A DNA stretch of 64,000 bases, taken from NCBI GenBank assembly GCA_041661505.1, contig JBAZUF010000001.1, positions 47,144 to 111,143 on the forward strand, in the 5' to 3' direction. The notes below the pieces were generated by a model. It worked only from the letters and a program-made list of their open reading frames with translations, ran no database searches and had not been told where the DNA came from. This DNA is from Patescibacteria group bacterium. GTDB taxonomy: Bacteria > Patescibacteriota > Patescibacteriia > Patescibacteriales > JBAZCA01. Below are positions 8,867 to 46,863 of the stretch, in pieces (positions within the stretch are counted from its first letter, which is position 1; each line of letters opens with the position of its first letter). Made by a program: the position numbers and the translations under genes.

Positions 8867-9580
8867 TTAATATTTTAACAGCTCTGATATTGTCGCGAAA
8901 ACATATCCTTTTTCTTTTAATCCGCTGATAATTTTCGGGAGGGCCTCTCTATCGGCCGCGCACTCTTTTTCACAAAATGGATGAAGTAAAATTATTGATC
9001 CCGGTTTCGCGTTTAGAAGGGTATTTTTAGTAATGAGTTCCGCGTTGCCGGAATAATTCGTATCCGGTTCAATGTCCCACATAATCGTTTTTATATTGTT
9101 TTCATTAAGATACCGCGGCAAACCCAATAATTTTTTTCCGTTTGGCGGGCGGAAGGTAATTTCACCCTGATAGCCGGAATCGCGGATAAGCTGGTTTGTT
9201 TTTTCTATTTCACTTTTAATGAATGCCTGGGATTTTAAGATCAAGCGCCGGTGCGAATAAGAATGGTTGCCCAGTTCGCTTCCTTGCCGGACAATTTCCT
9301 TGGCCTGATTGGGAAATTTTTCCAAAGATTGCCCAATGGCATAAAAAGTTGCCTGGACATTGTTTTCTCGCAATATTTTCAACACTTCATCCGTATATTC
9401 CGTAGGCGCGTCATCGAATGTTAAGGCCACTACTTTCTTGTCGGTATCTGCATGACTGGCAAGCCTTCCAAAAAACTGAAAAGTTCTTGACTTGCTAAGT
9501 TCAAAGAGACCGTAGGCGGTTATTGCCAGCACGGCCAAGACCAGCGCGCAAATTATATAAATTCTAATATTAATCTTCAT
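8867..9580 (-). CDS. polysaccharide deacetylase (NodB-type) with N-terminal membrane anchor
   Basis: VALTFDDAPTEYTDEVLKIL...ATFYAIGQ NodB motifs. Confidence 0.8.
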   Translation of the reverse strand: MKINIRIYIICALVLAVLAITAYGLFELSKSRTFQFFGRLASHADTDKKVVALTFDDAPTEYTDEVLKILRENNVQATFYAIGQSLEKFPNQAKEIVRQGSELGNHSYSHRRLILKSQAFIKSEIEKTNQLIRDSGYQGEITFRPPNGKKLLGLPRYLNENNIKTIMWDIEPDTNYSGNAELITKNTLLNAKPGSIILLHPFCEKECAADREALPKIISGLKEKGYVFATISELLKY

Positions 9581-9656
9581 TTATTTGGGCGATTTTGCAG
9601 AATAAACTACAGTTTTCTGTTCATGCTTCGTTTATTAGGCTCCACTCAAACTGCGT

Positions 9657-10298
9657 TTATACTTTTCGCTGATCGTATATCTCCAAAAATTTATCTTTCT
9701 CGTCAGGACTAAGAAAAAATTTCTTTCCATTTTTCAAGGTCATAAGAAGAAAGTCTCCCCGTGCTTTAATATCAACTTTTCTTGCTGAACCGGGATACTT
9801 TGTATACTGAACGGTAAATGGGGAGATACTGTAGCAAATCAACTCACCTTCGCTATAGGCATCTCCGGTTGGGTCTTTTTCTCCTCTGTCGCACTTCTCG
9901 TAAAAATCGATAGCTAAATCTTTTGCCTGATCATTTGATATTTTTTTTACGCTTTCAATTTCTTGGAAAGCAATCTTATCGCTTAGTGTTCCAACTTCGC
10001 AGAGTATGCCTGTTTGATCAATTTCGTAATATTGATTTGACGAAGATGATTTCTTAAAAATAATCAATAAAACAACGCTTGAAAAAAGAAAAAACACCAA
10101 ACCCAATTTTTGTTGGCTAGACAGGAACGGAGTATCGGGAAGTTTATCCACGGTGACATTTCCAACTCCATTCATTATCCCGGAAAGAAACAGCAAGCCA
10201 ATGCACCAAAAAAACAAAAATACTATAATAGTAAACCAGGGACGTGATGAAACATTTTTACAGTAAAATCTATCCATAATGTTATTAATTACATTCAA
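9657..10298 (-). CDS. hypothetical membrane protein
   Basis: 213 aa, two N-terminal TM helices and a soluble C-terminal domain; no recognisable family. Confidence 0.5.
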   Translation of the reverse strand: MNVINNIMDRFYCKNVSSRPWFTIIVFLFFWCIGLLFLSGIMNGVGNVTVDKLPDTPFLSSQQKLGLVFFLFSSVVLLIIFKKSSSSNQYYEIDQTGILCEVGTLSDKIAFQEIESVKKISNDQAKDLAIDFYEKCDRGEKDPTGDAYSEGELICYSISPFTVQYTKYPGSARKVDIKARGDFLLMTLKNGKKFFLSPDEKDKFLEIYDQRKV

Positions 10299-10368
10299 AG
10301 GTTATGACTTGGCCTGTTTGCATATTTGTCGTTTTCCCGATTATAATTATAAAAGGAACCGTCAAAAA

Positions 10369-10716
10369 TTATTGGCATAATTGTTCAACGTATTGCCCGT
10401 CTTTTGACCTATGTCCGCAAGCGCATGTGCAATACCCGTCTATACAGAAAGGATCACCGCCGATTCCTAATTCTTTTTCTCTCTCATCGCAAGAGTTTTT
10501 CATAACCTTCACGCAGTTTGAATCGGTTTCACACGACCAACCGTTATCTTTATCATAAGAAGGTCTAGCCGCGTCATTTTTTACCGAATTTGATTGAAAG
10601 CTGGCCGGCGGTAAGGCAGCGGGTATTTTTTGTTGGTTTTTTATTAGCATAACATAACCACCCAGCAACAATAAAAAGATGGCTACTATGATTGTTGCTT
10701 TTGTTAAATTTTTCAT
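10369..10716 (-). CDS. small secreted/anchored cysteine-rich protein
   Basis: 115 aa, N-terminal signal/anchor, 8 Cys in the C-terminal 55 aa (CETDSNC...CDE...CIDGYCTCACG). Confidence 0.5.
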   Translation of the reverse strand: MKNLTKATIIVAIFLLLLGGYVMLIKNQQKIPAALPPASFQSNSVKNDAARPSYDKDNGWSCETDSNCVKVMKNSCDEREKELGIGGDPFCIDGYCTCACGHRSKDGQYVEQLCQ

Positions 10717-10750
10717 AATGTTGAGTATTATTAGCTTTCTAATCTCTTCC

Positions 10751-10937
10751 TAACGGCTTCGGAATAAGCGAAGTGGCCGGAGGCATCCCGCCATCAGGCG
10801 GGAGGCCGGAAGGGCATTTCGCGTATTCCGAGTTAGGCGATGTCGCGAGCGGAGCGAGCGGCGAGCCTGACGAGGAAGAATTCCGAAGCCGTTAGGCCGA
10901 AAGGAAAGCGAGCGACAGCGAGCGATTTCGGCCTAAC
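10751..10937. repeat. 187-bp GC-rich structured repeat, copy 1 (two nested hairpins bounded by TAAC)
   Basis: 100% identical to 13227-13413 and 14542-14728; 15-bp terminal stem TAACGGCTTCGGAAT/ATTCCGAAGCCGTTA plus hairpin GTTAGGCCGAAA-N19-TTTCGGCCTAAC. Confidence 0.95.
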
Positions 10938-11151
10938 GTATCCGAATATGAGAAGTTTTTGCCCGCCTCCTTATTATATTATAATTGAAGAAAAGGGCAA
11001 AAATTTGGGTAAAAAATGAAATTCAAGTCCATAATTATATAAAAGAGAATTTCATTTTTTCCTCATATTCGGTGTTGTGCGATGTAAATTTTTTATCTCG
11101 TTGTTTATTGTACTAAATCTTAATGTTACTAAAAGAAAATTTGATTTTTTC

Positions 11152-11201
11152 GTTTTGTTTCAAAAAAAGAGGGGTAGGGGTGAATTTTTTTGAAACAAAA
11201 C
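11152..11201. terminator. 17-bp perfect inverted repeat with G-rich loop, immediately 3' of the KilA-N gene (bidirectional terminator-like)
   Basis: GTTTTGTTTCAAAAAAA-gaggggtaggggtgaa-TTTTTTTGAAACAAAAC. Confidence 0.6.
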
Positions 11202-11204
11202 TCC

Positions 11205-12053
11205 TCAGCGTATTTCTTTTTTAGATGATTCCAGCTTTTTTACTCTATCGTTTGTTAAAAGCGATTTCATCTGAATAATTGCAGTATTATTTAATTTCAA
11301 AATTCTATCTTTCTGCGAAAGTCCTTCGCGAATTAATAATGCGTTTATACTTTCAAGATTAGACAAAACTACCAACTGCTCAATTGAAGCATAATCTCGA
11401 ATATTTCCTTTTAACTTTGGATTCTTATCTCGCCACATTTTGGCGGTTATCCCGAATAGGGCAACATTGAGCAAATCCGCTTCATCGGCATATTTCATAT
11501 TAACCTGTTCTTTCGTTAATTCATGTGGAATTAGCTTTTCTTTTATGGCATCGGTATGAATTTTGTAATTGATTTTTGCCAGCGTTCTTTGAAGATTCCA
11601 TTCAAGCTTCAAACGGCTATTTTCATCTTGTTTAAGCCGCTGGAATTCAACTAATAAATATAGCTTGAATTCCGCGCTTACCCAGGAAGCGAACTCAAAC
11701 GCAATATCTATATGCGCGAAAGTGCCGCCTCCATATCTTCCAGATTTTGAAATTAAACCAATGGCATGTGTCTTTTCTATCCATTTTTGCGGCGGCAACA
11801 CAAAAGAATTGGCTCCAGCTTCATTTTTAAACTGGTCGAATTCGACCAGTTTAAAAACAGGATTATGCAGTCTTTCCCAAAGTCCTAGAAAATCAATCGT
11901 GCCACGAGTTCTCATCCAATTTTTTACGACATCGGCTGGAAATGCCGGGTTTTTGTGTCGCGCTATATCGGTCAAAGAAATATAATCACTATTATTTTTA
12001 GTAAAAGTGACTATTTCTATGCCTTCAACTTTTATTTTTTGTTTCTTTGCCAT
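11205..12053 (-). CDS. KilA-N domain protein (phage/mobile-element associated)
   Basis: N-terminus IKVEGIEIVTF..NSDYISLTDIAR matches the KilA-N/APSES-like DNA-binding domain; 282 aa. Confidence 0.7.
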   Translation of the reverse strand: MAKKQKIKVEGIEIVTFTKNNSDYISLTDIARHKNPAFPADVVKNWMRTRGTIDFLGLWERLHNPVFKLVEFDQFKNEAGANSFVLPPQKWIEKTHAIGLISKSGRYGGGTFAHIDIAFEFASWVSAEFKLYLLVEFQRLKQDENSRLKLEWNLQRTLAKINYKIHTDAIKEKLIPHELTKEQVNMKYADEADLLNVALFGITAKMWRDKNPKLKGNIRDYASIEQLVVLSNLESINALLIREGLSQKDRILKLNNTAIIQMKSLLTNDRVKKLESSKKEIR

Positions 12054-12121
12054 AAAGTATTAAGTTAGATTGAATTTAACTTAATTTTACCATATTTTTT
12101 ATTTTTTAAAAAAGAGGGTTG

Positions 12122-13066
12122 CTACAACTTTAATCCAAGTTTATATTTTCCATTAAATCTTGCAAATTCATAATCTTCACCAGTAAACATCCTTGCGAAA
12201 ACAGTTAATCTTTTTAACTCTGTCAAGAAATCTCTGCCGAATGTCTCTTTAAATAAAGATACTATTTCTTTATTTTCCATAATCCTTTCTCCTTCGATAA
12301 AGCCTCTTTTTAAGGCATTCCAAATTTGATCTTTCGGAAGTTTATTTTTTATGGCCAACTTCTTAATTATCGCATCGACTAACGTAACTTCAACACTGTA
12401 AGTAAATTTTTCCGGATTTATTTTTCTATTCCTTCTGTATAATTCCTTTTCTTCGTTTGACCAGCCAGAACTATTTAAATACTTTTCCAATATTTCTCTT
12501 GCTATTTTTTCAGTTACACCCTCATTAAATAAACCAAAATCATTGTTATGATAGCCAGACTGAATTTCTTTCGCATGCGCCTTATGATGACCAGATGGTT
12601 CCAGACCGACGCAAATATTTTTACTTATAGCATGAGCTTCTTCGTGTACGATAGTATGTAACATGTTCATTTCTTCAGTTCCGTAGGTTTCAGCCAGTCT
12701 CTCATAATAATATTTTTTTTCTGACTCTGGAGATGTGGGAATTGAACCAGGCGCCCTAAGCTTTATTAAATTATACTTACCGTCGTAATTACTATATGTT
12801 GCTTCGCTTGAAATAATTTTTTCAGGCCATATAAAATTACTTCTGTCTGCTGTAATTCCACATTTTTTTTCTAATTCAGAAAATAGGTCGCGCAATAAAT
12901 TAAAATCTATTTTATCAAAAAAACTTTCCCATTCGGGTAGGTTTTGTCGTCCCCACATTTCAACAAAATCGTCAATAAATTTTTGTTCTCTATTCCTAAC
13001 TTGTTCTTCGGGTTCCGCAATATCCTTTTCCAAAAAAATTTCTCGTTGATTTGGAATTTTTTCCAT
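12122..13066 (-). CDS. hypothetical protein with HEExH zinc-metalloprotease-like motif
   Basis: HTIVHEEAHAISK (HExxH) in a 314-aa otherwise unrecognised protein. Confidence 0.6.
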   Translation of the reverse strand: MEKIPNQREIFLEKDIAEPEEQVRNREQKFIDDFVEMWGRQNLPEWESFFDKIDFNLLRDLFSELEKKCGITADRSNFIWPEKIISSEATYSNYDGKYNLIKLRAPGSIPTSPESEKKYYYERLAETYGTEEMNMLHTIVHEEAHAISKNICVGLEPSGHHKAHAKEIQSGYHNNDFGLFNEGVTEKIAREILEKYLNSSGWSNEEKELYRRNRKINPEKFTYSVEVTLVDAIIKKLAIKNKLPKDQIWNALKRGFIEGERIMENKEIVSLFKETFGRDFLTELKRLTVFARMFTGEDYEFARFNGKYKLGLKL

Positions 13067-13226
13067 AATATTTTTGAAAATAGGAAATTAATCCGTTTTT
13101 TCTGCGATTCCAGGAGCAGAAAAAACACCTTTTACCCCTCTATAAAATAAATAAAAAATCAAATTTTCGTCGTGGTTCAATGCACAAAACCTGAAATTAC
13201 ACCCAAGATAAAAAATTTATTTCACT

Positions 13227-13413
13227 TAACGGCTTCGGAATAAGCGAAGTGGCCGGAGGCATCCCGCCATCAGGCGGGAGGCCGGAAGGGCATTTCGCGT
13301 ATTCCGAGTTAGGCGATGTCGCGAGCGGAGCGAGCGGCGAGCCTGACGAGGAAGAATTCCGAAGCCGTTAGGCCGAAAGGAAAGCGAGCGACAGCGAGCG
13401 ATTTCGGCCTAAC
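13227..13413. repeat. 187-bp GC-rich structured repeat, copy 2
   Basis: identical to copy 1. Confidence 0.95.
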
Positions 13414-13711
13414 GTATCGGGATAAGCGAAGTTCGCTTTCCGGGTTTATTGCTTTTAGCTTAACAATAAAAATGGCTAATGTAAATGCACTTATCGTGGA
13501 ATACGGACTAACAAAGGGAAGCGAATTTGGGAGAAGAAATTTTTCTTTCCTTAGCGTAAAAAATTTAAAAAACGAAAAATTTCTGAACCGCTTATCCCGT
13601 GTTAGACGACCCGAAGGGCTTGAGTTTCATTTTTAATAAAATGATTTTTTGGCTTGATTATAATTATCCTTTATGCTATTGTCATATGTCTTCCAATAAA
13701 CTCGAAAGGGG

Positions 13712-13915
13712 GTGAGTACATTCATGGAGGAAGGGCGTATCGCAGTGATTACAGTGGAATTCGTTAATCCCGATGAGCTAAAGAGAAGGGGTGAAGACGA
13801 ATCTTTGAAGAAACGGGGATGCCTCGGAACAGGAGGGCTGGGAAAATACATACCACTTCTCGCTGACTTTCCCGCGGACGTCAAAAGTGCGGTTCTTTTT
13901 ACCAAAAAGCAATAG
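13712..13915 (+). CDS. small hypothetical protein (67 aa from GTG; 63 aa from ATG 13724)
   Basis: AAAGGGGG RBS upstream; followed by a strong intrinsic terminator. Confidence 0.4.
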   Translation: MSTFMEEGRIAVITVEFVNPDELKRRGEDESLKKRGCLGTGGLGKYIPLLADFPADVKSAVLFTKKQ

Positions 13916-13940
13916 ATACTCCAATCAGGGCAAAAAAGCC

Positions 13941-13972
13941 GAAGACCAGACCGTAAATCTGGTCTTTTTTTT
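13941..13972 (+). terminator. rho-independent terminator (A-tract upstream makes it bidirectional)
   Basis: GACCAG-accgtaaat-CTGGTC followed by TTTTTTTT. Confidence 0.7.
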
Positions 13973-13998
13973 ATTAAAAAATTATTTTATTAAAAATG

Positions 13999-14130
13999 AA
14001 ATTTCGGCCTAACGTTTCCGAATATCGGAAGTTGCCGAAGCGTAGCGAAGGCAATTTGCGAAAAGTCCGAGCCGAGGACTTTTCCCGATATTCGGTGTTA
14101 GGCGAGGGTTCTTTTGCCCTTCCTTATTGT
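13999..14130. repeat. degenerate fourth site of the repeat family (solo right end ATTTCGGCCTAAC plus related palindromic insert)
   Basis: shares TTTCGGCCTAAC-GTtTCCGAATAT with the copy-1 right junction and ATTCgGtGTTAGGCGA with the repeat interior; 11-bp arms CCGAATATCGG/CCGATATTCGG. Confidence 0.6.
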
Positions 14131-14245
14131 AATTATACAAAAGAAAGGGGCAAAAGAAAGCGCAGCGACCCCTTGAGTTTTCTTTAAAAATATTTTTGCT
14201 TAAATGGTTGGGTGGCCGCCTGTCGAAGGAAGCCACCCTGTGATC

Positions 14246-14476
14246 TTACCAAAATTTGGAGCCCTCCAGGTTTTTCTTTTCTTTATACAGCTTCTTTAAT
14301 TCTGCTTCACGCACTTCTTCTCCTGTGAGGCTCTCATAATGAGCAATTTTTTGGTTCGTCTCGATAATGCGCTTGTTATTGGTTGAATTTGCGAGCCATA
14401 CTATAAGCACGCATAACATCACAAATACCAGAAAGGCGCCGGAGTAAAGTTTCGCTTCCTTTTTATCCACTTTCAT
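14246..14476 (-). CDS. small membrane protein
   Basis: 76 aa, one TM helix, Lys/Glu-rich tail. Confidence 0.4.
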   Translation of the reverse strand: MKVDKKEAKLYSGAFLVFVMLCVLIVWLANSTNNKRIIETNQKIAHYESLTGEEVREAELKKLYKEKKNLEGSKFW

Positions 14477-14541
14477 AATGTCCTCCAGTTGGGGTTGGTT
14501 TATCGAAAAAAAGCAAAAATATTTTTAAAGAAAATTTCGCA

Positions 14542-14728
14542 TAACGGCTTCGGAATAAGCGAAGTGGCCGGAGGCATCCCGCCATCAGGCGGGAGGCCGG
14601 AAGGGCATTTCGCGTATTCCGAGTTAGGCGATGTCGCGAGCGGAGCGAGCGGCGAGCCTGACGAGGAAGAATTCCGAAGCCGTTAGGCCGAAAGGAAAGC
14701 GAGCGACAGCGAGCGATTTCGGCCTAAC
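14542..14728. repeat. 187-bp GC-rich structured repeat, copy 3
   Basis: identical to copies 1 and 2. Confidence 0.95.
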
Positions 14729-14839
14729 TCGTCGTAAGACGAATAGTTGGGTAAATAATATTAGAAAATTGTATCTTATGCGTAATTATGGTAACATTCT
14801 GATATACTGACGGGCTACTTAAATGTTAGCATAAAAATA

Positions 14840-15661
14840 ATGGATGTAAAAGAACTCTTGGCTAAAATTGAAGAAGAGTTAAAGCTGAGGAATTACTCAA
14901 AAAAAACGATTAAGAGCTATATTGCGTGCTTAAACGATTATTTTAAATTTATTAAAATCGTTACGAAAGATCCCGACTTGGCCGCGATAAAAAAATTTCT
15001 CTTAGAAAAGCAGGACAGGGGACTTGCTCCGCAGACTATTAACCTTTACTTATACGCGGTAAAATACTTTTACTCGGAAATTACTAAGTGCCCGCGTAAA
15101 ATAAATATTAAATTCGCAAAAACTTCAAAAAAATTGCCGATTGTGCTATCCAGAAGTGAAATAGAAGGCTTGATAAACTGTTTGACAAATAGAAAGCATA
15201 AATTACTTATCGCCTTAGCTTACGGTGCGGGGCTAAGGTTAAGCGAGACATCCGCTTTAAAAATCAAGGACTTGGACTTAAAAGAACTAACCCTCCATCT
15301 AAAAGGCGCGAAAGGCAACCGGGACCGGATTACGATTGTTCCGGAAAAGTTAGTGCCGAAAATTTCCGAACTTATTGCCTTAAGGGATAAAAATGAGTAT
15401 ATTTTTTTAAGTAACCAGGGCGGAAAACTGTCCAGCCGGGCTTTGCAAAAAGTATTTGAAAAAGCGCTAAAGAGTGCTAAAATTGAAAAAGACGCTACTT
15501 TCCATAGTCTAAGACATAGCTTTGCCACCCATCTTTTAGAAAACGGCGTGGACGTGCGCTTTGTCCAGGAACTTTTGGGCCATAAAAATATAAGGACCAC
15601 GCAATTATACACGAAAGTTACCAACCCGATTTTAAAAAATATAAAAAGTCCTCTAACATAG
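14840..15661 (+). CDS. tyrosine site-specific recombinase/integrase (short, 273 aa)
   Basis: R...KGxKGNRDR...HSLRHSFATH...LGHKNIRTTQLYTKV catalytic signature; SAM-like N-terminal domain. Confidence 0.85.
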   Translation: MDVKELLAKIEEELKLRNYSKKTIKSYIACLNDYFKFIKIVTKDPDLAAIKKFLLEKQDRGLAPQTINLYLYAVKYFYSEITKCPRKINIKFAKTSKKLPIVLSRSEIEGLINCLTNRKHKLLIALAYGAGLRLSETSALKIKDLDLKELTLHLKGAKGNRDRITIVPEKLVPKISELIALRDKNEYIFLSNQGGKLSSRALQKVFEKALKSAKIEKDATFHSLRHSFATHLLENGVDVRFVQELLGHKNIRTTQLYTKVTNPILKNIKSPLT

Positions 15662-15662
15662 T

Positions 15663-17126
15663 ATGGATTTCTCTAAAATAAAAAAAATTTACATGATCGG
15701 GATCAAGGGCACCGGCATGGCGGCTTTGGGGCAGTACTTGTCGGAAAAAGGATTTGAAGTGATTGGATCTGACACAGCTGAAAATTACTCTACGACTGCT
15801 GACACTTTAAAAAACTCTAAGATTAAAGTGATTGATGGATTTGATGAAAAAAATATTCCTTCTGACGCCGGCCTGATAATTTATTCTACCGCCTATAATG
15901 CCGAGCGGAATGTCGAAGTGGCAAAAGCTTTGTCTGGAAAAATAAAAACCCTGACTTACCCGGAAGCTTTGGGCGCGGTTTTTAATTCGTCTTACGGCAT
16001 TGCCGTGGCTGGAAGCCATGGAAAAACTACGACTACCGCCTGGCTCGGATTTGTCGCCCGCGAGGCCGGAATGGAGCCGAGCGTCATGAACGGAAGTTTT
16101 GTCCCGCAATTCGGCGGCAATAGTTTAGCAGGGAAGTCGGATTACCTGATAGTTGAGGTGGATGAGTACCAAAACAAATTACAGCACTATAATCCCAAAG
16201 CGGTATTACTAAATAACATCGACTACGACCATCCGGATTTTTTTCCTGATCCCGAGTCTTACGAAAAAGTCTTTATAGATTTTATAAAAAAAATTCCGAA
16301 GAAAGGCTTTTTAGTCGCCAATTTTGACGACTCGGTTATTAAAAAAGTCGCCCGGGTAAATTGCCAGGGCAAGATCATCACCTATGCCTTAGAAAACTCC
16401 GAAGCGGATTTTATTGCTTATGATATTAGGACGCAGGGCGATAAACAATATTTTAAAGTCAAAGCCCGGTTTAATAATAAAGACGCGGAGCACGGGATTG
16501 ACAGCGCCGAAGAATTGGGAGACTTTTCTACGAGCCTGATGGGACAACACAATATTTATAACGGCCTGGCGGTTATTGCCGCGTCAATTGAATTAGGGCT
16601 GGATCTCCATAAAATCCGCGAATATTTGGGAGAATTTAAGGGTACGGCCCGGCGGATGGAACTCTTGGGCCAATTTAACGGCGCGGACATTTATGACGAT
16701 TACGCCCATCACCCGACTGAAATAAAAACAACGCTTCTTGGCTTAAAAGAATCGCAGGCGGATAAAAATTTAGTGGTAGTATTCCATCCGCACACTTTTA
16801 CGCGGACCAAAGCGCTTTTGGATGATTTTGCCAAAGCTTTTGGTTCGGCGGACGAGCTTATCGTATTGGACATATACGGAAGCGCCCGGGAAAAGCAAGG
16901 AGGCGTGCATACGACCGAGCTGATTGAAAAAATAAAAAATGAGAATCTGGCCAGCCAGGATGCGGGACACGACACCGGGCGTGAAGAACAGGTAATTAAA
17001 TACATTCCTGCCTTGGAAGAATGTGAAAAATACTTGCGCGCTCGCTTAAGGCGCGGCGACTTATGCGTTTTAATGGGCGCCGGCGACGTTTTTAGGATTG
17101 GTGAAAATCTATTGAAAGACATTTAA
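15663..17126 (+). CDS. murC: UDP-N-acetylmuramate--L-alanine ligase
   Basis: IYMIGIKGTGMAALGQYL N-terminus, GSHGKTTTTAW P-loop; Mur ligase middle and C-terminal domains. Confidence 0.9.
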   Translation: MDFSKIKKIYMIGIKGTGMAALGQYLSEKGFEVIGSDTAENYSTTADTLKNSKIKVIDGFDEKNIPSDAGLIIYSTAYNAERNVEVAKALSGKIKTLTYPEALGAVFNSSYGIAVAGSHGKTTTTAWLGFVAREAGMEPSVMNGSFVPQFGGNSLAGKSDYLIVEVDEYQNKLQHYNPKAVLLNNIDYDHPDFFPDPESYEKVFIDFIKKIPKKGFLVANFDDSVIKKVARVNCQGKIITYALENSEADFIAYDIRTQGDKQYFKVKARFNNKDAEHGIDSAEELGDFSTSLMGQHNIYNGLAVIAASIELGLDLHKIREYLGEFKGTARRMELLGQFNGADIYDDYAHHPTEIKTTLLGLKESQADKNLVVVFHPHTFTRTKALLDDFAKAFGSADELIVLDIYGSAREKQGGVHTTELIEKIKNENLASQDAGHDTGREEQVIKYIPALEECEKYLRARLRRGDLCVLMGAGDVFRIGENLLKDI

Positions 17127-21640: not shown

Positions 21641-22226
21641 TCCAGGGTAAGCGGATAGTCGCTCCGCCCCGCATCTGCGGGGCGGAGAGGAAAGTCCGGA
21701 CTCCCGTCCCGTCCGCGTTTTGCAGGCGGGATGATAGCGGCAGTGGGTAACGCCCACCTATCCGCCCGGTAATCGGACGGATAAGGGAAAGTGTCTTGCC
21801 CGTACTGCGGGCAAGATCCTGCTTCCTTAATTCACATTAAGAAAGCAGGGCCACAGAGACAATACTAACCGCGGGGCGTTTACCTTGAGTGAAAAAAACG
21901 TACCGAAGGGCTTTAGGGCCTTTTGATTGCGCTTTAGTCTCGCTTAAGGTAATCGCTTCGCGGTGAAAGGTGAAAAGCTGCTTGGTGTTTTTGGTTATAC
22001 CGGATATCCATATAACTTTAAGCTACAAGTATTCCCGGCTGGTAACAGCCGCGGATGGCAAACCCTGCCTGGAGCAAGAACAAAGCCTCGCCCATATTTT
22101 GAGCGGGGTAAAAAGTAGTTCGCTTGATCCCGCGGGCAACCGCGGGGCTAGATAAATGGCTATCCATCCTTAGCTTCGCATTGAAGAAAAGGAGGACAGA
22201 ATCCGGCTTATAGCTTGCCCTGGAAT
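21641..22226 (+). ncRNA. rnpB: RNase P RNA, bacterial type A, unusually long
   Basis: GAGGAAAGTCCGGACTC (P4/CR-I), GGGTAACGCC, GGCTGGTAACAGCCGCGG...GGAGCAAG, ACAGAATCCGGCTTATAG (CR-V); P1 pairing CCAGGGTAAGC/GCTTGCCCTGG. Confidence 0.85.
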
Positions 22227-41792: not shown

Positions 41793-42149
41793 CATAATAT
41801 ACCAGTTAAAACTTTCCGCCGGCGGGCGGAATGATAAACAAGCGTCTGGCAGGGCCGAAAGGAGCGGCTATCTGGCGCGGACTAAATTATATGGAAAGGC
41901 TTTTTAAAACATTATTCTATTTGGCGTTAATAATTTTCTGCCTCTTAATCATCGGGGTATTCCTTTTGATAATAAAAATTTCTTTGCTATTTTTGGCTGA
42001 AATAAATTTCTTCGGCATCCATTTTACATTAGGCTAAGGGGAAGAGCTTTTCTGGAAGACCCCTGGAAAAGCCGCTTATCACTTCGTTTAACCTACATTA
42101 TGCGAAGTATTAACATCAATAAACACAGGGGTTATATCGCTTCTCTTTA

Positions 42150-43118
42150 TTGCTTATGCCGCCTAAACCAATAACAAAATATCTAGTTGATTACCTTGAA
42201 TTCCTTGAGATCGAAAAGGGCCTCTCTTCTAAAACCCAGGAGAATTATTCCCGCTTTTTATCAAGATTTTTTAATTGGCTCAAAGAGGGAGGGATCGGGG
42301 AACTACTCCCCTCTCAACTTACCTATGAACACGTCTGGAAGTACCGCGTATACATGTCCAAGTTCGCGGACAAAAAAACCGGAAAAGGATTAAAAAAATC
42401 CACCCAAAACTATTATCTAATCGCCCTGCGCGGAATGCTTGAATACTTTATTGAGAAAGATATCCCTTCCCTTCCGCCTTCAAAAATTAAGCTCGCTAAA
42501 AATAAAGGCGATAAAGAAATTAAATTTTTAAATCTAGACCAGGTGGAAACCTTGCTTTTAGCCCCGGCGATGGATTCCATACAGGGATTAAGAGACCGCG
42601 CCATTTTGGAAACCCTCTTTTCTACCGGCTTGCGGGTGGCCGAACTCGTTCGCTTAAACCGCGACCAGTTTAAAATGAAAAACCTGAAAGGAGACATTGA
42701 AATAACCGTAGTGGGAAAGGGCGGCAAGGTAAGAACGGTATATTTTTCCGACAGGGCGGTAGCCAGTCTTAAAAGATATTTGGAAGCCCGCAAGGATTTT
42801 GATCCGGCGCTTTTTATTAATTTCAAGCGCGGCGAGAGTAAAACAAACGCTTCCCGCCGATTAACGACAAGAAGCATTGAGGATATCGTAAAAAAATATA
42901 TATTGATTTCCGGTCTGCCGGTTATGGCTTCCCCCCATACCCTAAGGCATTCGTACGCTACTGATCTATTGACCCAGGGAGTCGATTTAAGGACAGTTCA
43001 GGAATTCTTGGGCCACAGGAACATCGCCACTACTCAAATTTACACTCACGTAACCAATAAGCGCTTAAGGGATATCCATAAAAATTTCCACGGCGGAAAA
43101 AAAATAAAAGACCGGTAG
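42150..43118 (+). CDS. Xer-type tyrosine recombinase
   Basis: R..GLRVAEL, HTLRHSYATDLL, LGHRNIATTQIYTHV. Confidence 0.85.
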   Translation: MLMPPKPITKYLVDYLEFLEIEKGLSSKTQENYSRFLSRFFNWLKEGGIGELLPSQLTYEHVWKYRVYMSKFADKKTGKGLKKSTQNYYLIALRGMLEYFIEKDIPSLPPSKIKLAKNKGDKEIKFLNLDQVETLLLAPAMDSIQGLRDRAILETLFSTGLRVAELVRLNRDQFKMKNLKGDIEITVVGKGGKVRTVYFSDRAVASLKRYLEARKDFDPALFINFKRGESKTNASRRLTTRSIEDIVKKYILISGLPVMASPHTLRHSYATDLLTQGVDLRTVQEFLGHRNIATTQIYTHVTNKRLRDIHKNFHGGKKIKDR

Positions 43119-43127
43119 ATAGCGCTC

Positions 43128-43646
43128 TTAGTTGGTATATGGACCGGCTAAAATGTAATACGAATTAGCGTTGCCGCCACCGTCCAGGCCGGTAAAAGTC
43201 GTGCATATTTTAGAGGCATTGCCGCTTATCCGCTCCATAACTTTGGAATAAATTACGGCAATGCGCGCGTATTCTCCCCCGGTGCAATTAACATCGCCGT
43301 CATAGTAATAAAAATGGACGGAATTGGCCGGCGTATCGGATGATCCCAGCGGGTCAATCGGGGTCTTTTGCAAATACGGCCTCAAAGAGGCGTCAATCGT
43401 ACCGCCGATCCCGATAATGCCGGTCTGGGCGGACGGAGGATATTGGCGGTTGTCGTTAAAATACATTTCCATAGCATTTTTCAGTTGCTTTAGGTCTGAC
43501 AGCCTGGTTGTATCGCGCGCTTTTTCTCGCGCGTTTTTTAAATTCACTACTCCTAACGTGGAAAGGAACCCGATAATGGAAATAACCACCAAAAGTTCAA
43601 TCAGGGTGAATCCCAGGCTATTAAATTTCATTTGGCTCATAAACAA
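43128..43646 (-). CDS. type IV pilin/pseudopilin (prepilin N-terminal methylation motif)
   Basis: GFTLIELLVVISIIG class III signal. Confidence 0.75.
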   Translation of the reverse strand: MFMSQMKFNSLGFTLIELLVVISIIGFLSTLGVVNLKNAREKARDTTRLSDLKQLKNAMEMYFNDNRQYPPSAQTGIIGIGGTIDASLRPYLQKTPIDPLGSSDTPANSVHFYYYDGDVNCTGGEYARIAVIYSKVMERISGNASKICTTFTGLDGGGNANSYYILAGPYTN

Positions 43647-43731
43647 GGTGGGCGAGCCCTGCGTTCTGCCCCGTATTTCGCGGAACGGAGCGGGCCAAGC
43701 GATTAATATATACTTAGAGATATAAATTTTA

Positions 43732-45057
43732 TTAAGGCAAATATTCTAAAGGATTAACCGGTATGCCGTTTAAGCGGACTTCAAAATGGAGATGCGGCCC
43801 GGTAGTAAGCGGTCCGGCGCCGGGCGTTCCCGGCATTCCGCCAGAAAGACCGATAACCTGGCCTTGCGTTACGTATTCGTCTTCCTCAACATAAATTTTT
43901 GAAACATGCCCGTAAACCGTTGCCAGACCGTCGCCATGGATAAGCATAATATAGCTATAAGCTTTACCGCCGTTTTTAGCCCGGGCAACATAGCCGGATG
44001 AAGCGGCTTTGATCGGAGTCCCCTGCCCAGCCCGGATATCAACTGCCGGATGCTCAAAAACAAACCTGAAAGGATAATCCGGATCGTGGAATGTGGCGGT
44101 GACTACGTTGCGCGCTACCGGCCAGATCATGCCCGAGTCGTTATATTCCAGTTTTTTCGGGTCAAGCCGGGTGAGCCTTTCTCTTACGGTTTTTTCCAAA
44201 TTGCTGATATCCGCCGCGGCGGCCGCCTGCTCTCTCTTGGCCTGGCTCAAAAGAGACTGGTACTGGGATTCCGACTGGCGGGTTTCTTCCAATAAATAAT
44301 TCTTGTTATCATACTCGACCGCCAAATTTTGTTTTTTCTCTTCCAGCCCGGCCTTAAATTTCGCCAGTTCTGCCGCCTTGGCGTCGAGCTCAATCTTTAT
44401 TTTATCCAGTTCAGCCTTTCTATCCTTGACTTCGCCCAAGGCTTCCTGAATTTCCGAATTTACGTCTTCCAAATATTTTAACTGGTTTAAAAATTCCGAA
44501 AAAGAATCATTAAGCAAAAGCGCTTCCAGAGAGCTTACGTCATCCTGCTTATAAACCAGCCTCAAAACTTTTCCGATATATTCTTTCCGGGTTTGGATTT
44601 CATCCTCTTTTTCTTTTATTTCCAGCTGGGTTTTTTGGATTTCCAGCTGGGTCCGGTCAATTTCAACCTCGGTCTCGGCAATATCCAGCTCGGCTTTTTT
44701 TGCCCGGTTATCGATAATTGATAACTGGCTCCCCAAGCTCGCCTGCTCGGACTGTTTTTCCCGAATCGCCTGGCTGTAGGCGGTTTGCTGGTCCTGGATC
44801 TCCTTCAATCTTTTTTTTCTTTCTTCAATTTGCGAATTCAGATTCCGCACTTCTTCATTGGCTTGCGGTGAGCTTCCGGTGTCCGCCGCCATTCCGATCG
44901 CTTTAATTAAGAAAAACGAAGAAACTGACAGGCAGACAAAAAGAAATAAAATAATAATTTTTAGCTTTTTAGGCATGGGCATATATTCTATTATACCAAA
45001 AAGCCGGACAATGGGCAAAGCCCGGGTTGTCCGGCTAATATACTGCCAGTTTTCCAA
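43732..45057 (-). CDS. M23-family peptidase with long coiled-coil (EnvC-like)
   Basis: coiled-coil N-terminal half; C-terminal HxxxD...HLHFEV LytM/M23 motifs. Confidence 0.8.
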   Translation of the reverse strand: MENWQYISRTTRALPIVRLFGIIEYMPMPKKLKIIILFLFVCLSVSSFFLIKAIGMAADTGSSPQANEEVRNLNSQIEERKKRLKEIQDQQTAYSQAIREKQSEQASLGSQLSIIDNRAKKAELDIAETEVEIDRTQLEIQKTQLEIKEKEDEIQTRKEYIGKVLRLVYKQDDVSSLEALLLNDSFSEFLNQLKYLEDVNSEIQEALGEVKDRKAELDKIKIELDAKAAELAKFKAGLEEKKQNLAVEYDNKNYLLEETRQSESQYQSLLSQAKREQAAAAADISNLEKTVRERLTRLDPKKLEYNDSGMIWPVARNVVTATFHDPDYPFRFVFEHPAVDIRAGQGTPIKAASSGYVARAKNGGKAYSYIMLIHGDGLATVYGHVSKIYVEEDEYVTQGQVIGLSGGMPGTPGAGPLTTGPHLHFEVRLNGIPVNPLEYLP

Positions 45058-45063
45058 AAACGG

Positions 45064-46863
45064 CTAGTTTGAGGCCCTTTTTTCAATCTTTTCTTTCACT
45101 TCCCTAATCAGCTCGTCCTTACTCATCTGCTTCAAGTCTTTTTGCCCACGGAGGCGCACGGCTAATTGGCCGCCGCCCATTTCTTTATCGCCGATTACTA
45201 TTACGTAAGGTATTTTTTCTCCCGAAGCTTTGCGGATTTTGTTGCCTAGAGTTTCGTCCCCAGTGTCGGCTTCAGCCCGAATTCCGGCCATTACCAGCTC
45301 TTTAGCAAAATCTTCGCTAAAGTTAGCGTGTTTTTCCCCAACAGACAGTATTTTAACCTGAACCGGTGAAAGCCAAACCGGGAACGCTCCGGCGTAATAT
45401 TCAATTAAATATGAGAAGAAGCGCTCAAATGACCCGATCAGAGCCCGATGGATCATAAACGGCTGCTTCTTTTTTCCGTTTTCATCTATATAAGACAGTT
45501 CAAACCTTTCCGGCAGATTGAAGTCCACCTGGATGGTTGAAATTGAATCTTCTTTGCCGTAAACGTTAACTGCCTGGACATCCAGCTTCGGACCGTAAAA
45601 AGCCGCTTCGCCTTTGGCTTCGTAAAATGGCACGTCATTTTTTTCGAGCACTTTGCGCAAAGTTTCCTCGGCCTTTTTCCAGCTTTCCTTGTCGCCCACG
45701 TATTTTGATTTTTCCGCGTCGGAAAGCGAGAGCCGGTATTTATAATTGGTAAACCCTAAATCTTTATAAAAATTGTCCATCATTTTCATTACTTCCATAA
45801 ACTGGTCTTCAAGCTGTTCCGGCGTACAGAAGATATGGGCGTCGTTTTGAGTAAAGCCGCGGACGCGCTGGAGGCCGTGCACCTCGCCGGATTTTTCATA
45901 ACGGTAAACCGTGCCCAGCTCGCCGATCTTCATCGGCAGTTCCCGGTAGCTATGCGGCTTCATTTTATAAACCATAATGCCGGCCGGGCAATTCATCGGC
46001 TTTAAGACATAAGTTTCTTTGACTTTGGCTTTTTTGCCTTCCTGGGCGTCTTTCAAATTTTGGCCGACTTCAAAAGCCGGATACATGCTTTCGTTATAAA
46101 AACCCCAGTGGCCGGAAGTTTCAAAAAGCTCTTTCCGGTTGATGTGCGGAGTCTGGATATGGACGTAGCCGTAGCTGCGCTCCATTTTAATCATATAATC
46201 TTCAAGCGCGCGGCGGATAACATATCCTTTGGGGAGCCAAACCGGGAGTCCCGGCCCAATCTCATTAAAACTGGCAAAAAGCTCAAGTTCTTTTCCCAGC
46301 TTTATATGATTGCGCTTTTCCGCTTCTTCCATCCGTTTTAAATATTCTTCCAGCTCTTTTTTAGTTTCAAAAGCCACGCCGTAAATCCGCTGAATCATTT
46401 TATTTTTCTCGTCGCCCTTCCAATAAGCGCCGGCGAGCTTAGTCAATTTAAAGCCTTCCGGATTTATTTTCCCGGTCGAAGCGATGTGCGGACCCTTGCA
46501 CATGTTAATAAAATCTCCCTGTTCAAAAAATGTTATCACGCTCTCCCCCTCCCTTTCTAAATCCCGCGCCAGTTCAGCCGTATAAATATATTTTTTCTTT
46601 TCCAAAAACTCAATCCCCTTTTTAACAGGCATTTCTGATTTTTTTATTACTAAATCCTCCTTTATTATCTTCCGCATCTCTTCTTCGATTTTCGCCAAAT
46701 CAACTTCTGACACCTGGTGTTTTGCGTCAAAATCATGGTAAAAGCCGTTTTCAATTGACGGCCCGACGCCGGGAATCGCTTTATACATTTTTTCCAAAGC
46801 CTGCATCATTACGTGGGACAGCGAGTGCCTTAAAGCTTCGATATTTTTTTCATCTTTTGCCAT
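45064..46863 (-). CDS. thrS: threonyl-tRNA synthetase
   Basis: class II aaRS motifs plus ThrRS editing/anticodon-binding architecture; 599 aa. Confidence 0.9.
   Translation of the reverse strand: MAKDEKNIEALRHSLSHVMMQALEKMYKAIPGVGPSIENGFYHDFDAKHQVSEVDLAKIEEEMRKIIKEDLVIKKSEMPVKKGIEFLEKKKYIYTAELARDLEREGESVITFFEQGDFINMCKGPHIASTGKINPEGFKLTKLAGAYWKGDEKNKMIQRIYGVAFETKKELEEYLKRMEEAEKRNHIKLGKELELFASFNEIGPGLPVWLPKGYVIRRALEDYMIKMERSYGYVHIQTPHINRKELFETSGHWGFYNESMYPAFEVGQNLKDAQEGKKAKVKETYVLKPMNCPAGIMVYKMKPHSYRELPMKIGELGTVYRYEKSGEVHGLQRVRGFTQNDAHIFCTPEQLEDQFMEVMKMMDNFYKDLGFTNYKYRLSLSDAEKSKYVGDKESWKKAEETLRKVLEKNDVPFYEAKGEAAFYGPKLDVQAVNVYGKEDSISTIQVDFNLPERFELSYIDENGKKKQPFMIHRALIGSFERFFSYLIEYYAGAFPVWLSPVQVKILSVGEKHANFSEDFAKELVMAGIRAEADTGDETLGNKIRKASGEKIPYVIVIGDKEMGGGQLAVRLRGQKDLKQMSKDELIREVKEKIEKRASN

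Follow-up and report, generated by a model that had tools for sequence, protein, structure and literature searches.

Background

Integrons, single-recombinase Xer/dif systems, IMEX elements and the pdif modules of Acinetobacter plasmids are the described systems closest to the locus analyzed here. Integrons are known to hold ORF-less cassettes as well as duplicated cassettes, and IMEX elements, such as the CTX phage, integrate via one Xer-catalysed strand exchange of folded ssDNA that mimics dif.

The dif site is composed of two 11-bp imperfect inverted arms with a 6-bp spacer (11-6-11) (PMC2958812), and in the XerS/difSL system the site is genetically linked to its gene (PMC2731167). The pdif modules are bounded by ordinary duplex XerC/XerD sites in alternating orientation (PMC7399989, PMC9771954). 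What marks the integron integrase is an additional domain, specific to IntI, in the region of patch III (Messier & Roy 2001, cited in PMC9668308; PMC8138268), and this insertion is held to be necessary for attC recombination (PMC9668308, PMC8138268). Integron surveys have reported none in CPR (PMC9024848), for which Xer-related enzymes of a 'Cand' type have been described (PMC8138268).

In this study a 64-kb stretch of Patescibacteria DNA (the window) was analyzed, which contains three copies of a 187-bp GC-rich repeat. Each of the three is probably an insertion of the same mobile, ORF-less cassette, within an integron-like array beside an Xer/XerA-type recombinase gene. No earlier description of such an array or unit was found in the searched literature.

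The 187-bp unit and the cassette array

The three copies of the unit (Table 1) are 100% identical, as a preliminary description of this DNA had reported. Identity stopped at TAAC on both sides in every pair: 0 nt were shared leftwards beyond the unit and 0 nt rightwards, except for 5 nt in the case of copies 1 and 2. In all copies and contexts the edge fell within TAAC (GTTA on the cassette strand), where both boundaries had been placed before, so that the bond is located to within the four shared nucleotides; the 7-mers GCCTAAC and GTTAGGC named at that time are likewise present. The ends coincide with crossover points of the integron type, which read G|TT along the cassette strand and TAA|C along the + strand. 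In minus-strand orientation the unit opens with G|TTA, and its last part is a folded hairpin site that GCCTAAC/GTTAGGC closes.

Hairpin 1 of the unit was measured at the dimensions given previously (15-nt arms TAACGGCTTCGGAAT / ATTCCGAAGCCGTTA with 114 nt in between), and hairpin 2 also exists, with a spacer of 23 nt instead of the 19 nt first given. The GC content of the unit, 0.61, agreed with the earlier value of about 60%; the GC contrast with the surroundings is genuine, but the 35–40% assumed for the genome was slightly low (37–40% in the local region vs 43.7% in the whole window). Each copy holds a 91-nt hairpin site of the family described below (DNA fold dG -34.4 and z -6.5 in copy 1; repeated at 13224–13314 and 14539–14629 in copies 2 and 3) and an inverted copy of the unit's own circle junction. 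The unit is a whole ORF-less cassette, almost wholly made of recombination-site DNA, and is not itself a recombination site; of the three options offered initially, the attC-like one is favoured.

Table 1. Features of the cassette array and the recombinase locus (positions in the window)
Feature	Position	Strand	Description
Array distal end	10743..10754	+	ATCTCTTCCTAAC; presumed original left arm of the insertion site
Inner 91-nt family-type hairpin site of unit	10748..10838	+	TAAC-GGCT-stem ... stem-GTTAGGC-GATGT; scanner match
Unit copy 1	10751..10937	-	ORF-less cassette, distal array end; cassette proper 10754-10936 (C..AA on + strand)
Inverted copy of unit's own circle junction	10880..10937		ATTCCGAAGCCGTTAGGCCGAAA (10880-10902), 23-nt loop, left arm ATTTCGGCCTAAC (10925-10937)
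Hairpin site B1	10931..11080	+	GCCTAAC-GTAT-CCGAATATGAG ... CTCATATTCGG-T-GTTGTGC, Y-shaped tip; 3' end of cassette 10937-13229
Cargo of two-ORF cassette 10937-13229	11205..13066	-	KilA-N domain protein 11205-12053; 314-aa orphan with HExxH motif 12122-13066
Unit copy 2	13227..13413	-	Cassette proper 13230-13412
Hairpin site B2	13407..13607	+	GCCTAAC-GTAT-CGGGATAAGCG ... CGCTTATCCCG-T-GTTAGAC; 3' end of cassette 13413-14012
Cargo of cassette 13413-14012	13712..13915	+	67-aa orphan ORF; terminator-like hairpin 13941-13967 after ORF
Hairpin site B3	14007..14103	+	GCCTAAC-GTTT-CCGAATATCGG ... CCGATATTCGG-T-GTTAGGC; 3' end of cassette 14013-14544; 'fourth site' of the preliminary description
Cargo of cassette 14013-14544	14246..14476	-	76-aa orphan ORF, predicted membrane helix
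Unit copy 3	14542..14728	-	Cassette proper 14545-14727; recombinase-proximal first cassette, abuts duplex junction site
Duplex junction site, attI- or dif-like	14716..14745	+	Left arm ATTTCGGCCTAA, 7-nt centre CTCGTCG, right arm TAAGACGAATA
Promoter-like TTGTAT-N17-TAACAT of recombinase gene	14769..14797	+	Second TTATGCG box in spacer; putative promoter
Tyrosine recombinase	14840..15661	+	273 aa, Xer/XerA type, without IntI-specific insertion

The array consists of six cassettes (10754–14727) on the minus strand, three of which are the 187-bp unit. Every cassette bears a + strand hairpin site, and every cassette boundary is TAA|C within a conserved 12-nt arm, ATTTCGnnYTAA. This arm accounts for two features of the preliminary description, namely the left flanks that had been read as decayed copies of the unit's right end, and the 'fourth site', which is a real hairpin site (B3) and not a degenerate copy of the unit. 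The recombinase gene near copy 3 and the membership of the repeats in a six-cassette array were absent from that description.

The cargo comprises for the most part short orphan ORFs and resembles integron cassettes; the 67-aa ORF of cassette 13413–14012 runs opposite to the remaining cargo. A consensus promoter scan for a cassette-driving promoter returned 13 promoter-like sites vs 11.3 in shuffles. The order of the cassettes rests on one assembly, as the sole contig across all three copies is the window's own. In the GC skew, which bears on a possible terminus location of the locus, a weak sign change with an origin-like sign was located near 13–14 kb, and a stronger change at about 42 kb of the window.

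Hairpin sites

In a scan of the window, hairpin sites were confined to 10.7–14.8 kb. They share one geometry, enclosed by two 7-bp cores (RYYYAAC first, GTTRRRY last). Four nt separate the first core from an 11-bp stem that covaries and contains a TATGCG box; the stem leads to a variable, branched tip, and its partner arm is 1 nt away from the second core, so that the loop beside the cores is asymmetric (4x1 nt). Folding, proposed earlier as a check, yielded structures far more stable than those of shuffled sequences (z = -4 to -11, DNA parameters). Compensatory double changes were present at 11 of 11 stem pairs among 29 sites from 14 loci, and 98% of cells were paired in the same sites vs 25–47% in slid controls, a figure inflated by the site sets, which came from our own scanner and profiles and were pre-filtered for pairing. 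The outer core positions pair less well because each core takes one half from the neighbouring cassette. The strand with 5'-RYYYAA|C, which is antisense to the cassette ORFs, was the better folder in 24 of 27 sites (p = 3.5e-5).

Duplex junction site and adjacent recombinase gene

The array begins at a duplex junction site about 95 bp upstream of the recombinase gene, and the first cassette joins this site at TAA|C, between 14727 and 14728. The junction is conserved in 25 CPR loci, with the consensus ATTTcgnatAA for the left arm, CTngTtn for the centre and nTATnCgaAnT for the right arm, and the dyad symmetry of its 11-bp arms across the 7-nt spacer was 6.4/11 vs about 3.2 in shifted controls. 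In the CPR loci the arm-7 nt-arm site precedes the recombinase gene by 70–150 bp, and its joint with the first cassette is again TAA|C. The TATGCG-AAGT box of the junction matches the hairpin arms, and the TATGCG box is common to the hairpin stems, the duplex junction and the putative recombinase promoter, the last of which was represented in 13 of the 19 loci checked by TTGTAT-N16-18-TAnnnT with a TTATGCG box.

The recombinase gene starts 112 bp from unit copy 3, and its 273-aa product contains a tyrosine-recombinase catalytic domain. The best PDB match was the integron integrase VchIntIA (2a3v), and XerA structures (4a8e and 5hxy) were also matched. With the NCBIfam equivalog model NF040815 (recomb_XerA_Arch) the protein reached the cutoff marginally (221.3 bits vs 220); its scores were below the cutoffs of the XerC and XerD models and of the IntI model TIGR02249 (199.9 bits, in two stretches, vs 265). 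The alignment to VchIntIA breaks at chain residues ~210–243, IntI1 has 300 codons across the span where the recombinase has 255, and the IntI-specific insertion was absent from an alignment of 29 recombinase homologues.

The recombinase is one of the CPR enzymes of the Xer-related 'Cand' type, and its family, with thousands of members at about 70% identity, is conserved in Patescibacteria. Both its activity on the hairpin sites and its choice of strand are predicted from sequence. Given the high conservation of the family, the enzyme may be a housekeeping Xer whose neighbours are coincidental or parasitic. It might also combine its proposed role in the array with that of the cell's housekeeping Xer, the junction then being a candidate dif site.

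Occurrence in other genomes and metagenomes

The arrangement of the array and its polarity are conserved across Patescibacteria. Many other CPR genomes likewise have hairpin sites of this geometry on the strand of the recombinase gene and upstream of it. The scanner returned 63 matches in other CPR loci vs about 10 expected from shuffles, and every arm-profile match in these loci preceded the recombinase gene on the strand of that gene, whereas downstream there were none. Related arrays beside similar short recombinases were found in Bacteroidota and Spirochaetota, with unchanged polarity relative to the position of the gene. Many CPR contigs stop 80–600 bp upstream of the recombinase gene, some of them exactly at YAAC.

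The unit itself was found in at least five right-hand contexts (in the window B1, B2 and the junction; on metagenome contigs L085 and L086, where the unit adjoins further cassettes, two more hairpin sites) and at least four left-hand contexts, with four different left neighbours that all end in ATTTC-n-YAYAAC. Together with ends at the integron-type crossover, these contexts uphold the initial suggestion of repeated site-specific recombination at a TAAC core. Two other loci, L009 and L029, hold analogous multi-copy units of unrelated sequence, each with a copy at the junction and with an analogue of the inverted circle-junction design.

Alternative explanations

An ordinary integron remnant (CALIN), in which the hairpins are attC sites used by a true IntI elsewhere or in trans and the Xer gene is an unrelated housekeeping neighbour, would explain the integron-like cassette logic, the fit of the core 7-mers to RYYYAAC/GTTRRRY and the lack of the IntI insertion in the adjacent recombinase, and CALINs are common and taxonomically widespread (PMC9668308). 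This explanation is nevertheless unlikely: at least 12 CPR loci of different classes, as well as Bacteroidota and Spirochaetota, repeat the adjacency, strand and polarity seen here with respect to the recombinase gene, the TATGCG box links the junction, promoter and hairpin arms, the geometry of classical attC is different, the arm profiles of the array hairpins gave no match to a classical attC site, and the surveys cited above list no CPR integrons (PMC9024848).

Static duplication without site-specific mobility, by homologous recombination, replication slippage or gene conversion among hairpin-rich intergenic regions, appears more improbable. Gene conversion yields perfect identity, and the cargo proteins that were checked are confined to the same neighbourhoods in the window's own lineage. 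However, in all pairs both edges of identity coincide to the base with the conserved TAA|C, other hairpin sites adjoin the unit in L085 and L086, and the unrelated units of L009 and L029 each have a copy at the junction.

Very stable folds, covarying stems and an intergenic location might indicate structured ncRNA genes, an option of the preliminary description, or terminators/insulators repeated between genes. A search against Rfam found nothing within the array at gathering thresholds, and two sub-threshold, chance-level matches in 9000–16000. The hairpins are not terminators of the cassette ORFs because the better-folding strand is antisense to those ORFs. The core motifs are conserved and unpaired and the recombination joints are exact, which suggests a role at the DNA level; a role as ncRNA or terminator is highly improbable.

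Little probability is also assigned to the earlier option of a MITE, a non-autonomous transposon that would target and duplicate TAAC. The unit is small, structured, ORF-less and multi-copy, and TAAC at both ends can be read as a 4-bp target duplication, but its ends do not form the terminal inverted repeats typical of transposons (GGCTTCGGAAT vs GGCCGAAATCG), no transposase was found nearby, all copies are in one 4-kb array at sites with the 12-nt arm and none elsewhere in the 64 kb, and ORF-carrying cassettes are bounded by the same joints.

A collapsed or mis-threaded repeat is hardly credible, since, although short-read assemblies (ENA, Logan and JGI contigs) break inside the unit or exactly at its edge and one contig spans all copies, a true repeat gives such breaks, and the unit was joined to identical flanks at 100% identity in at least four independent datasets, so that the repeat is not an artefact of one assembly.

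Proposed mechanism

Insertion of a mobile cassette, the preferred explanation, could proceed as follows. The recombinase would bind the hairpin folded from the + strand (the bottom strand with respect to the ORFs of the cassettes), and this hairpin may mimic the duplex junction site. Cleavage would occur at TAA|C, and a single strand would be exchanged with the duplex site beside the recombinase's own gene or with another hairpin. Replication would resolve the intermediate, as it does when attI and attC recombine in integrons or when Xer enzymes integrate the ssDNA of CTX phage. We propose that the unit multiplies because it is a nearly pure recombination substrate; later cassette insertions at the junction would push its older copies farther from the recombinase gene.

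Comparison with known systems

The pdif modules are, like the cassettes of this array, discrete gene modules bounded by Xer-type recombination sites (PMC7399989, PMC9771954), but the sites here are long hairpins that all have one orientation and accompany one recombinase gene. With IMEX elements such as the CTX phage the array shares tandem accumulation at a site and, presumably, a folded single strand that mimics the duplex target; exchange of a single strand is implied here because central-region homology is absent. The array elements differ in being cassettes of 0.18–2.3 kb without phage or plasmid functions, bounded and arranged as in integrons.

Among single-recombinase Xer/dif systems (archaeal XerA; XerS/difSL), likeness to XerA is indicated by the marginal model score, and likeness to XerS/difSL by the gene-linked site. 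The junction resembles dif in its 11-bp imperfect inverted arms ending in ..TAA / TTA.., but has a spacer of 7 instead of 6 nt and is occupied by hairpin cassettes.

Several differences separate the array from integrons. It is hosted by Patescibacteria, and, unlike IntI, its recombinase is without the specific insertion and below the IntI model cutoff. Of the features of attC, the array sites show the cores, the hairpin, the asymmetric loop and the variable tip, whereas geometry and arm sequence are unlike those of classical attC, which has 6/5 spacers, a bulged G and extra bases on the arm opposite the cleaved core; the array hairpins have a 4x1 loop beside the core, an 11-bp stem and a conserved TATGCG-AAGT box, and their extra bases are on the other arm, adjacent to the cleaved core.

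The array nonetheless shares with integrons, including sedentary chromosomal ones with homogeneous attC (the Vibrio cholerae repeats), a recombinase gene transcribed away from mostly same-strand, mostly orphan cassettes, which end in an imperfect hairpin closed by RYYYAAC/GTTRRRY with crossover at G|TT, weaker pairing at the outer core positions and a strand-folding bias. Its layout of recombinase gene and array is the same as in the class 1 integron, and its junction has the arm-7 nt-arm geometry of attI1, which is cleaved at TAA|C. An integron-like array served by a recombinase without the integron-defining domain could bear on the origins of integrons.

The 187-bp repeat and its boundaries

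The three 187-bp copies were 100% identical, as the preliminary description had claimed, and the identity ended with the unit: no nucleotide was shared further leftward, and none rightward except for 5 nt that copies 1 and 2 share on account of their related right neighbours. The GC content of the unit is 61%, compared with 43.7% for the window and 37–40% for the local region. The first of the two hairpins described for the unit had the expected 15-nt arms and 114 nt in between; the second was also present, with a measured spacer of 23 nt instead of the 19 nt originally reported. On the + strand the unit folds with -58 kcal/mol (z = -11, DNA parameters), and the fold z values of the remaining candidate sites range from -4 to -8 with DNA parameters.

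The repeat is real. The unit and identical flanks were found at 100% identity in ENA, Logan and JGI contigs, which stop inside the unit or exactly at its edge; all three copies are threaded by the window's own contig only, and the segment order is that of one assembly.

Hairpin sites and cassettes of the array

A scan of the 64-kb window for RYYYAAC...GTTRRRY pairs with complementary flanks gave matches confined to 10.7–14.8 kb. Three of the sites, B1, B2 and B3, lie outside the units. The sites share a + strand geometry in which two 7-nt cores enclose an 11-bp stem with a branched tip; 4 nt separate the first core from the stem, and 0–1 nt lie between the stem partner and the second core. When the minus strand is read, the region resolves into six cassettes with boundaries at G|TTA, which is TAA|C in + strand terms, and each cassette has the hairpin as its 3' end. 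They are three 183-bp ORF-less units, one two-ORF cassette encoding a KilA-N protein along with a 314-aa orphan, and two further cassettes with one small orphan ORF apiece. The array extends away from the recombinase gene, which is transcribed the opposite way, and a control class 1 integron has the same integrase/array layout. A plus-strand cassette orientation was ruled out, as the unit boundaries would then lie off the crossover points.

Features of the array and its surroundings (coordinates within the window)
Feature	Position	Strand	Remark
Unit, copy 1	10751-10937		187 bp
Unit, copy 2	13227-13413		187 bp
Unit, copy 3	14542-14728		187 bp
Inner family-type bulged hairpin (copy 1)	10748-10838	+	91 nt; scan
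Perfect reverse complement of the unit's own joined ends	10880-10902		ATTCCGAAGCCGTTAGGCCGAAA; 3' of inner hairpin
B1	10931-11080	+	scan, outside units
B2	13407-13607	+	scan, outside units
B3	14007-14103	+	scan, outside units
Junction site	14716-14745		ATTTCGGCCTAA-CTCGTCG-TAAGACGAATA
Tyrosine recombinase gene	14840-15661	+	273 aa; starts 112 bp right of copy 3

Comparison of the cassette ORFs with NCBIfam and Pfam identified only KilA-N and a bPH_2 domain, the other ORFs being orphans. The 314-aa protein (12122–13066, minus strand), which neighbours the KilA-N protein, matched no family; its HExxH motif (VHEEAHA) suggests a zinc metalloprotease-like cargo. When the cargo proteins were sought in other neighbourhoods, only the same segments were found, in two other assemblies. 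Consensus promoters and terminators were not enriched in the array relative to shuffles.

In metagenome contig L086 (106–711 of the reverse complement) and in locus L009 (7905–8489), hairpin sites with perfect 11-bp stems have arms ~590 nt apart, and the loop of the second sub-hairpin in L086 contains a whole ORF plus a promoter-like motif; cargo may sometimes be carried inside the variable tip of a site, not beside the site. Tracts rich in GAGCGA/GCGAGCG recur across distant lineages, both in variable site parts and immediately ahead of the left arm (..AGCGAGCGATTTCG-RYYYAAC), for example at 10839–10872 and 10907–10924 of the window and in loci L010, L013, L029, L031, L036 and L057. They may reflect an accessory motif for binding or a mini-hairpin sequence that is favoured.

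The unit as a site-only cassette

The unit is a complete ORF-less cassette, not a recombination site. It contains an inner bulged hairpin of the family type, followed by a perfect inverted copy of the unit's own end-to-start joint, which in a circle or tandem would read TTTCGGCCTAA|CGGCTTCGGAAT. Together, the inner hairpin and the inverted junction copy explain both the perfect outer stem and the second hairpin, with one 5' arm having two alternative partners. The outer 150-nt perfect stem was considered as the attC of the unit and dropped; the inner 91-nt bulged site fits the family geometry. Left flanks that had appeared to be decayed copies of the unit's right end, and the supposed degenerate fourth site (B3), both turned out to be a conserved 12-nt arm, ATTTCGnnYTAA, which is common to every cassette boundary. 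A MITE was rejected, the unit being without terminal inverted repeats and without dispersed copies, and no relevant match to Rfam was obtained at permissive or gathering thresholds.

ORF-less multi-copy units of unrelated sequence and the same design were also identified elsewhere. A complete genome from Wolfebacteria has three copies, of ~190 nt, and a MAG from Gracilibacteria has two of 244 nt that are identical; in each, the last copy adjoins the junction that separates the first cassette from the recombinase gene. A left-arm hairpin at this junction was found in 6 of 22 loci, which ruled it out as a universal junction feature and indicates a recurrent cassette type, not a fixed part of the platform.

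The GC-rich units yield spurious ORFs of 59–106 aa, all beginning MSRAERAASLTRKNSEAVRPKGKRATASDFGLT (10840–11019, 13316–13636, 14631–14810 and 14489–14686). Such ORFs have been called as genes in other assemblies, e.g., a 47-aa call at the start of locus L001, and would seed a false protein family.

Evidence for selection on hairpin structure

Covariation was analyzed on 29 sites from 14 loci, found with the scanner and profiles built in this analysis. Compensatory double changes were observed in 11 of 11 stem pairs, and 98% of cells were paired, compared with 25–47% when the partner was slid; the sites had been pre-filtered for at least 9 of 11 pairs, which inflates the percentage paired but not the number of distinct pair types. 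The outer core positions paired more poorly, as is expected if the neighbouring cassette supplies half of the core, as in integrons. At 24 of 27 sites the fold of the 5'-RYYYAA|C strand is more stable than that of the complementary strand, by 3 kcal/mol on average (p = 3.5e-5). The better-folding strand is antisense to the cassette ORFs, which argues against a terminator role and in favour of a single DNA strand being folded.

Some 11-bp stems are the same in distant lineages of the Candidate Phyla Radiation (CPR), GCGTGTATCTG in loci L024 and L057 and CTGTGTATCTG in L009 and L086, suggesting either a sequence constraint beyond pairing or cassette exchange between lineages.

The tyrosine recombinase and the junction site

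The preliminary description had not included the tyrosine recombinase gene to the right of copy 3. Its product barely reached the cutoff of the NCBIfam XerA equivalog (221.3 vs 220) and remained below that of the IntI model (199.9 vs 265), which was matched in two pieces. The best PDB match was the integron integrase VchIntIA (2a3v), of which chain residues ~210–243, corresponding to the IntI-specific insertion, were skipped; XerA structures were matched end to end. For the stretch that takes 255 codons in the window recombinase, IntI1 has 300. The family is very conserved in Patescibacteria, with thousands of ~273-aa homologues at ~70% identity. CPR enzymes were assigned to a Xer-related "Cand" subgroup by Smyshlyaev et al., where the IntI insertion was called essential for integron function (PMC8138268).

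The motif ATTTcgnatAA|CTngTtn|nTATnCgaAnT was identified between the first cassette and the recombinase gene in 25 CPR loci. It consists of two 11-nt arms around 7 nt, with a dyad symmetry of 6.4/11 compared with ~3.2 in shifted controls, and the cassette joint is the boundary of its left arm. A mini-hairpin at 14722–14757, with a dG of only -6.3, was replaced by this duplex arm-7 nt-arm site after the cross-locus conservation was found. The hairpin stems also contain the right-arm box TATGCG-AAGT, at a distance from the core of 9 nt in the 5' arm and 6 nt in the 3' arm, so that the folded site resembles a distorted duplex site. The recombinase gene has a conserved promoter-like motif, TTGTAT-N17-TAnnnT, whose spacer contains the box a second time in 13 of 19 loci.

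The GC-skew sign change near the array (13–14 kb), looked at within the 64-kb window for terminus/dif location, is weak. A far stronger GC/AT-skew reversal (~+0.06 to -0.15) is located at ~42000–46000 of the window, which could be a replication landmark or a change of gene-orientation block. A bacterial RNase P RNA match (21643–22226, 145.6 bits) spans 584 nt over a 367-position model, and this CPR RNase P RNA therefore has large insertions.

Related loci

In the species-representative genomes scanned, 80 loci were found. Many CPR contigs stop 80–600 bp upstream of the recombinase gene, some beginning exactly at YAAC, and where upstream DNA exists, hairpin sites of the same geometry were found to precede the gene on its own strand in Peregrinibacteria, Saccharibacteria, Gracilibacteria, Wolfebacteria and others. 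In CPR loci, the arm profiles gave zero matches downstream of the recombinase gene. The scanner gave 63 matches in 1.06 Mb, compared with ~10 per shuffle set.

Arrays of ~132-nt or ~165-nt sites also flank related recombinases in Flavobacteria, Cytophagales and one Spirochaete. Compared with CPR, both the side of the gene and the strand are switched, so that the polarity of the array relative to the gene position is kept. All of these recombinases are without the IntI insertion and have scores like those of the window protein. In Bacteroidota, for example in the Flavobacterium difficile locus L053 (11438–19669), arrays of up to 8 near-identical ~132-nt sites (GCCTAAC-GTTCC-GGCGCTTGGCG...) lie beside short Xer/XerA-type recombinases, as do the ~165-nt sites of the Spirochaete; further loci noted with L053 for Bacteroidota/Spirochaete arrays are L078, L081, L074, L076, L058, L038 and L040. 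Weak arm-profile matches (E 0.02–0.1) were located downstream of related recombinases, on the minus strand, in loci L050 (11389–12658) and L054 (11484), from Saccharibacillus and Paenibacillus, and these two Firmicutes may have arrays of this kind.

Metagenomes were scanned with a 31-mer specific to the unit, and this yielded four contigs, all from one sample, two of which are inter-unit segments of the window. Contig L085 carries a unit, three cassettes that are not in the window, each with its own hairpin site, and a second unit, and in L086 a unit is joined to yet another hairpin site. Together with the window, these contigs place the unit in at least five right-hand and at least four left-hand contexts, all joined at TAAC.

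Proposed mechanism

The recombinase would bind the folded + strand hairpin and cleave it at TAA|C, one strand would be exchanged with the duplex site beside the recombinase gene or with another hairpin, and the product of this exchange would be resolved by replication. A second strand exchange is unlikely, because the central regions of the hairpins and the junction are without homology. The same logic applies to attI x attC recombination in integrons and to Xer-mediated integration of CTX phage. Being almost entirely recombination site, the unit would undergo frequent re-insertion, and as later insertions would push older units from the gene, units would become interspersed among cargo cassettes, as is observed. 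Replicative resolution has been described previously (PMC3458562).

Comparison with known systems

We tentatively propose, with slightly less than even confidence, that Patescibacteria and some Bacteroidota/Spirochaetota carry an unrecognised gene-capture platform, in which an Xer/XerA-type recombinase without the IntI-specific domain recombines cassettes, as folded single-stranded hairpins, into a dif/attI-like site next to the gene that encodes it. Such a platform would stand between Xer/dif and integrons as a living intermediate, would escape IntegronFinder-type searches and would be the cause of recurrent MAG breaks at this locus. The 187-bp unit would then represent a recurring class of gene-less "site-only" cassettes with their own circle junction inverted.

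If the adjacent recombinase services the array, the IntI extra domain is unneeded for cassette capture, the integron-like range reaches CPR, whose tiny genomes have little known gene-exchange machinery, and the junction, the hairpins and the 183-bp site-only cassette form a substrate set for studying the evolution of single-strand recombination. The arrays would mark a blind spot of integron-finding software and explain why many CPR assemblies break just upstream of the recombinase gene.

To our knowledge, no natural system has been reported in which an Xer-like enzyme without the IntI extra domain heads a hairpin-cassette array. No description of such arrays in CPR was found in the literature searched, the coverage of which is incomplete, with most subscription journals outside it. 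Published surveys list no integrons for CPR and hardly any for Bacteroidetes (PMC9024848, PMC8618304).

Xer-like recombinases are the presumed ancestors of the integron integrases, which would have gained one extra domain that enables the use of folded single-stranded sites (PMC4792948). The present locus is integron-like, yet its recombinase lacks the IntI-specific insertion on which membership among the integron integrases is decided. In the control integron, the attI1 simple site (GCTAA|CTTTGTT|TTAGG) is laid out like the junction, as arm-7 nt-arm. The classical attC of aadA2, with 6/5-nt spacers and a bulged G, was unmatched by the hairpin arm profiles. The locus is also similar to single-recombinase Xer/dif systems in that the site lies beside the gene, and differs from them in its 7-nt spacer and in the cassette array that occupies the site.
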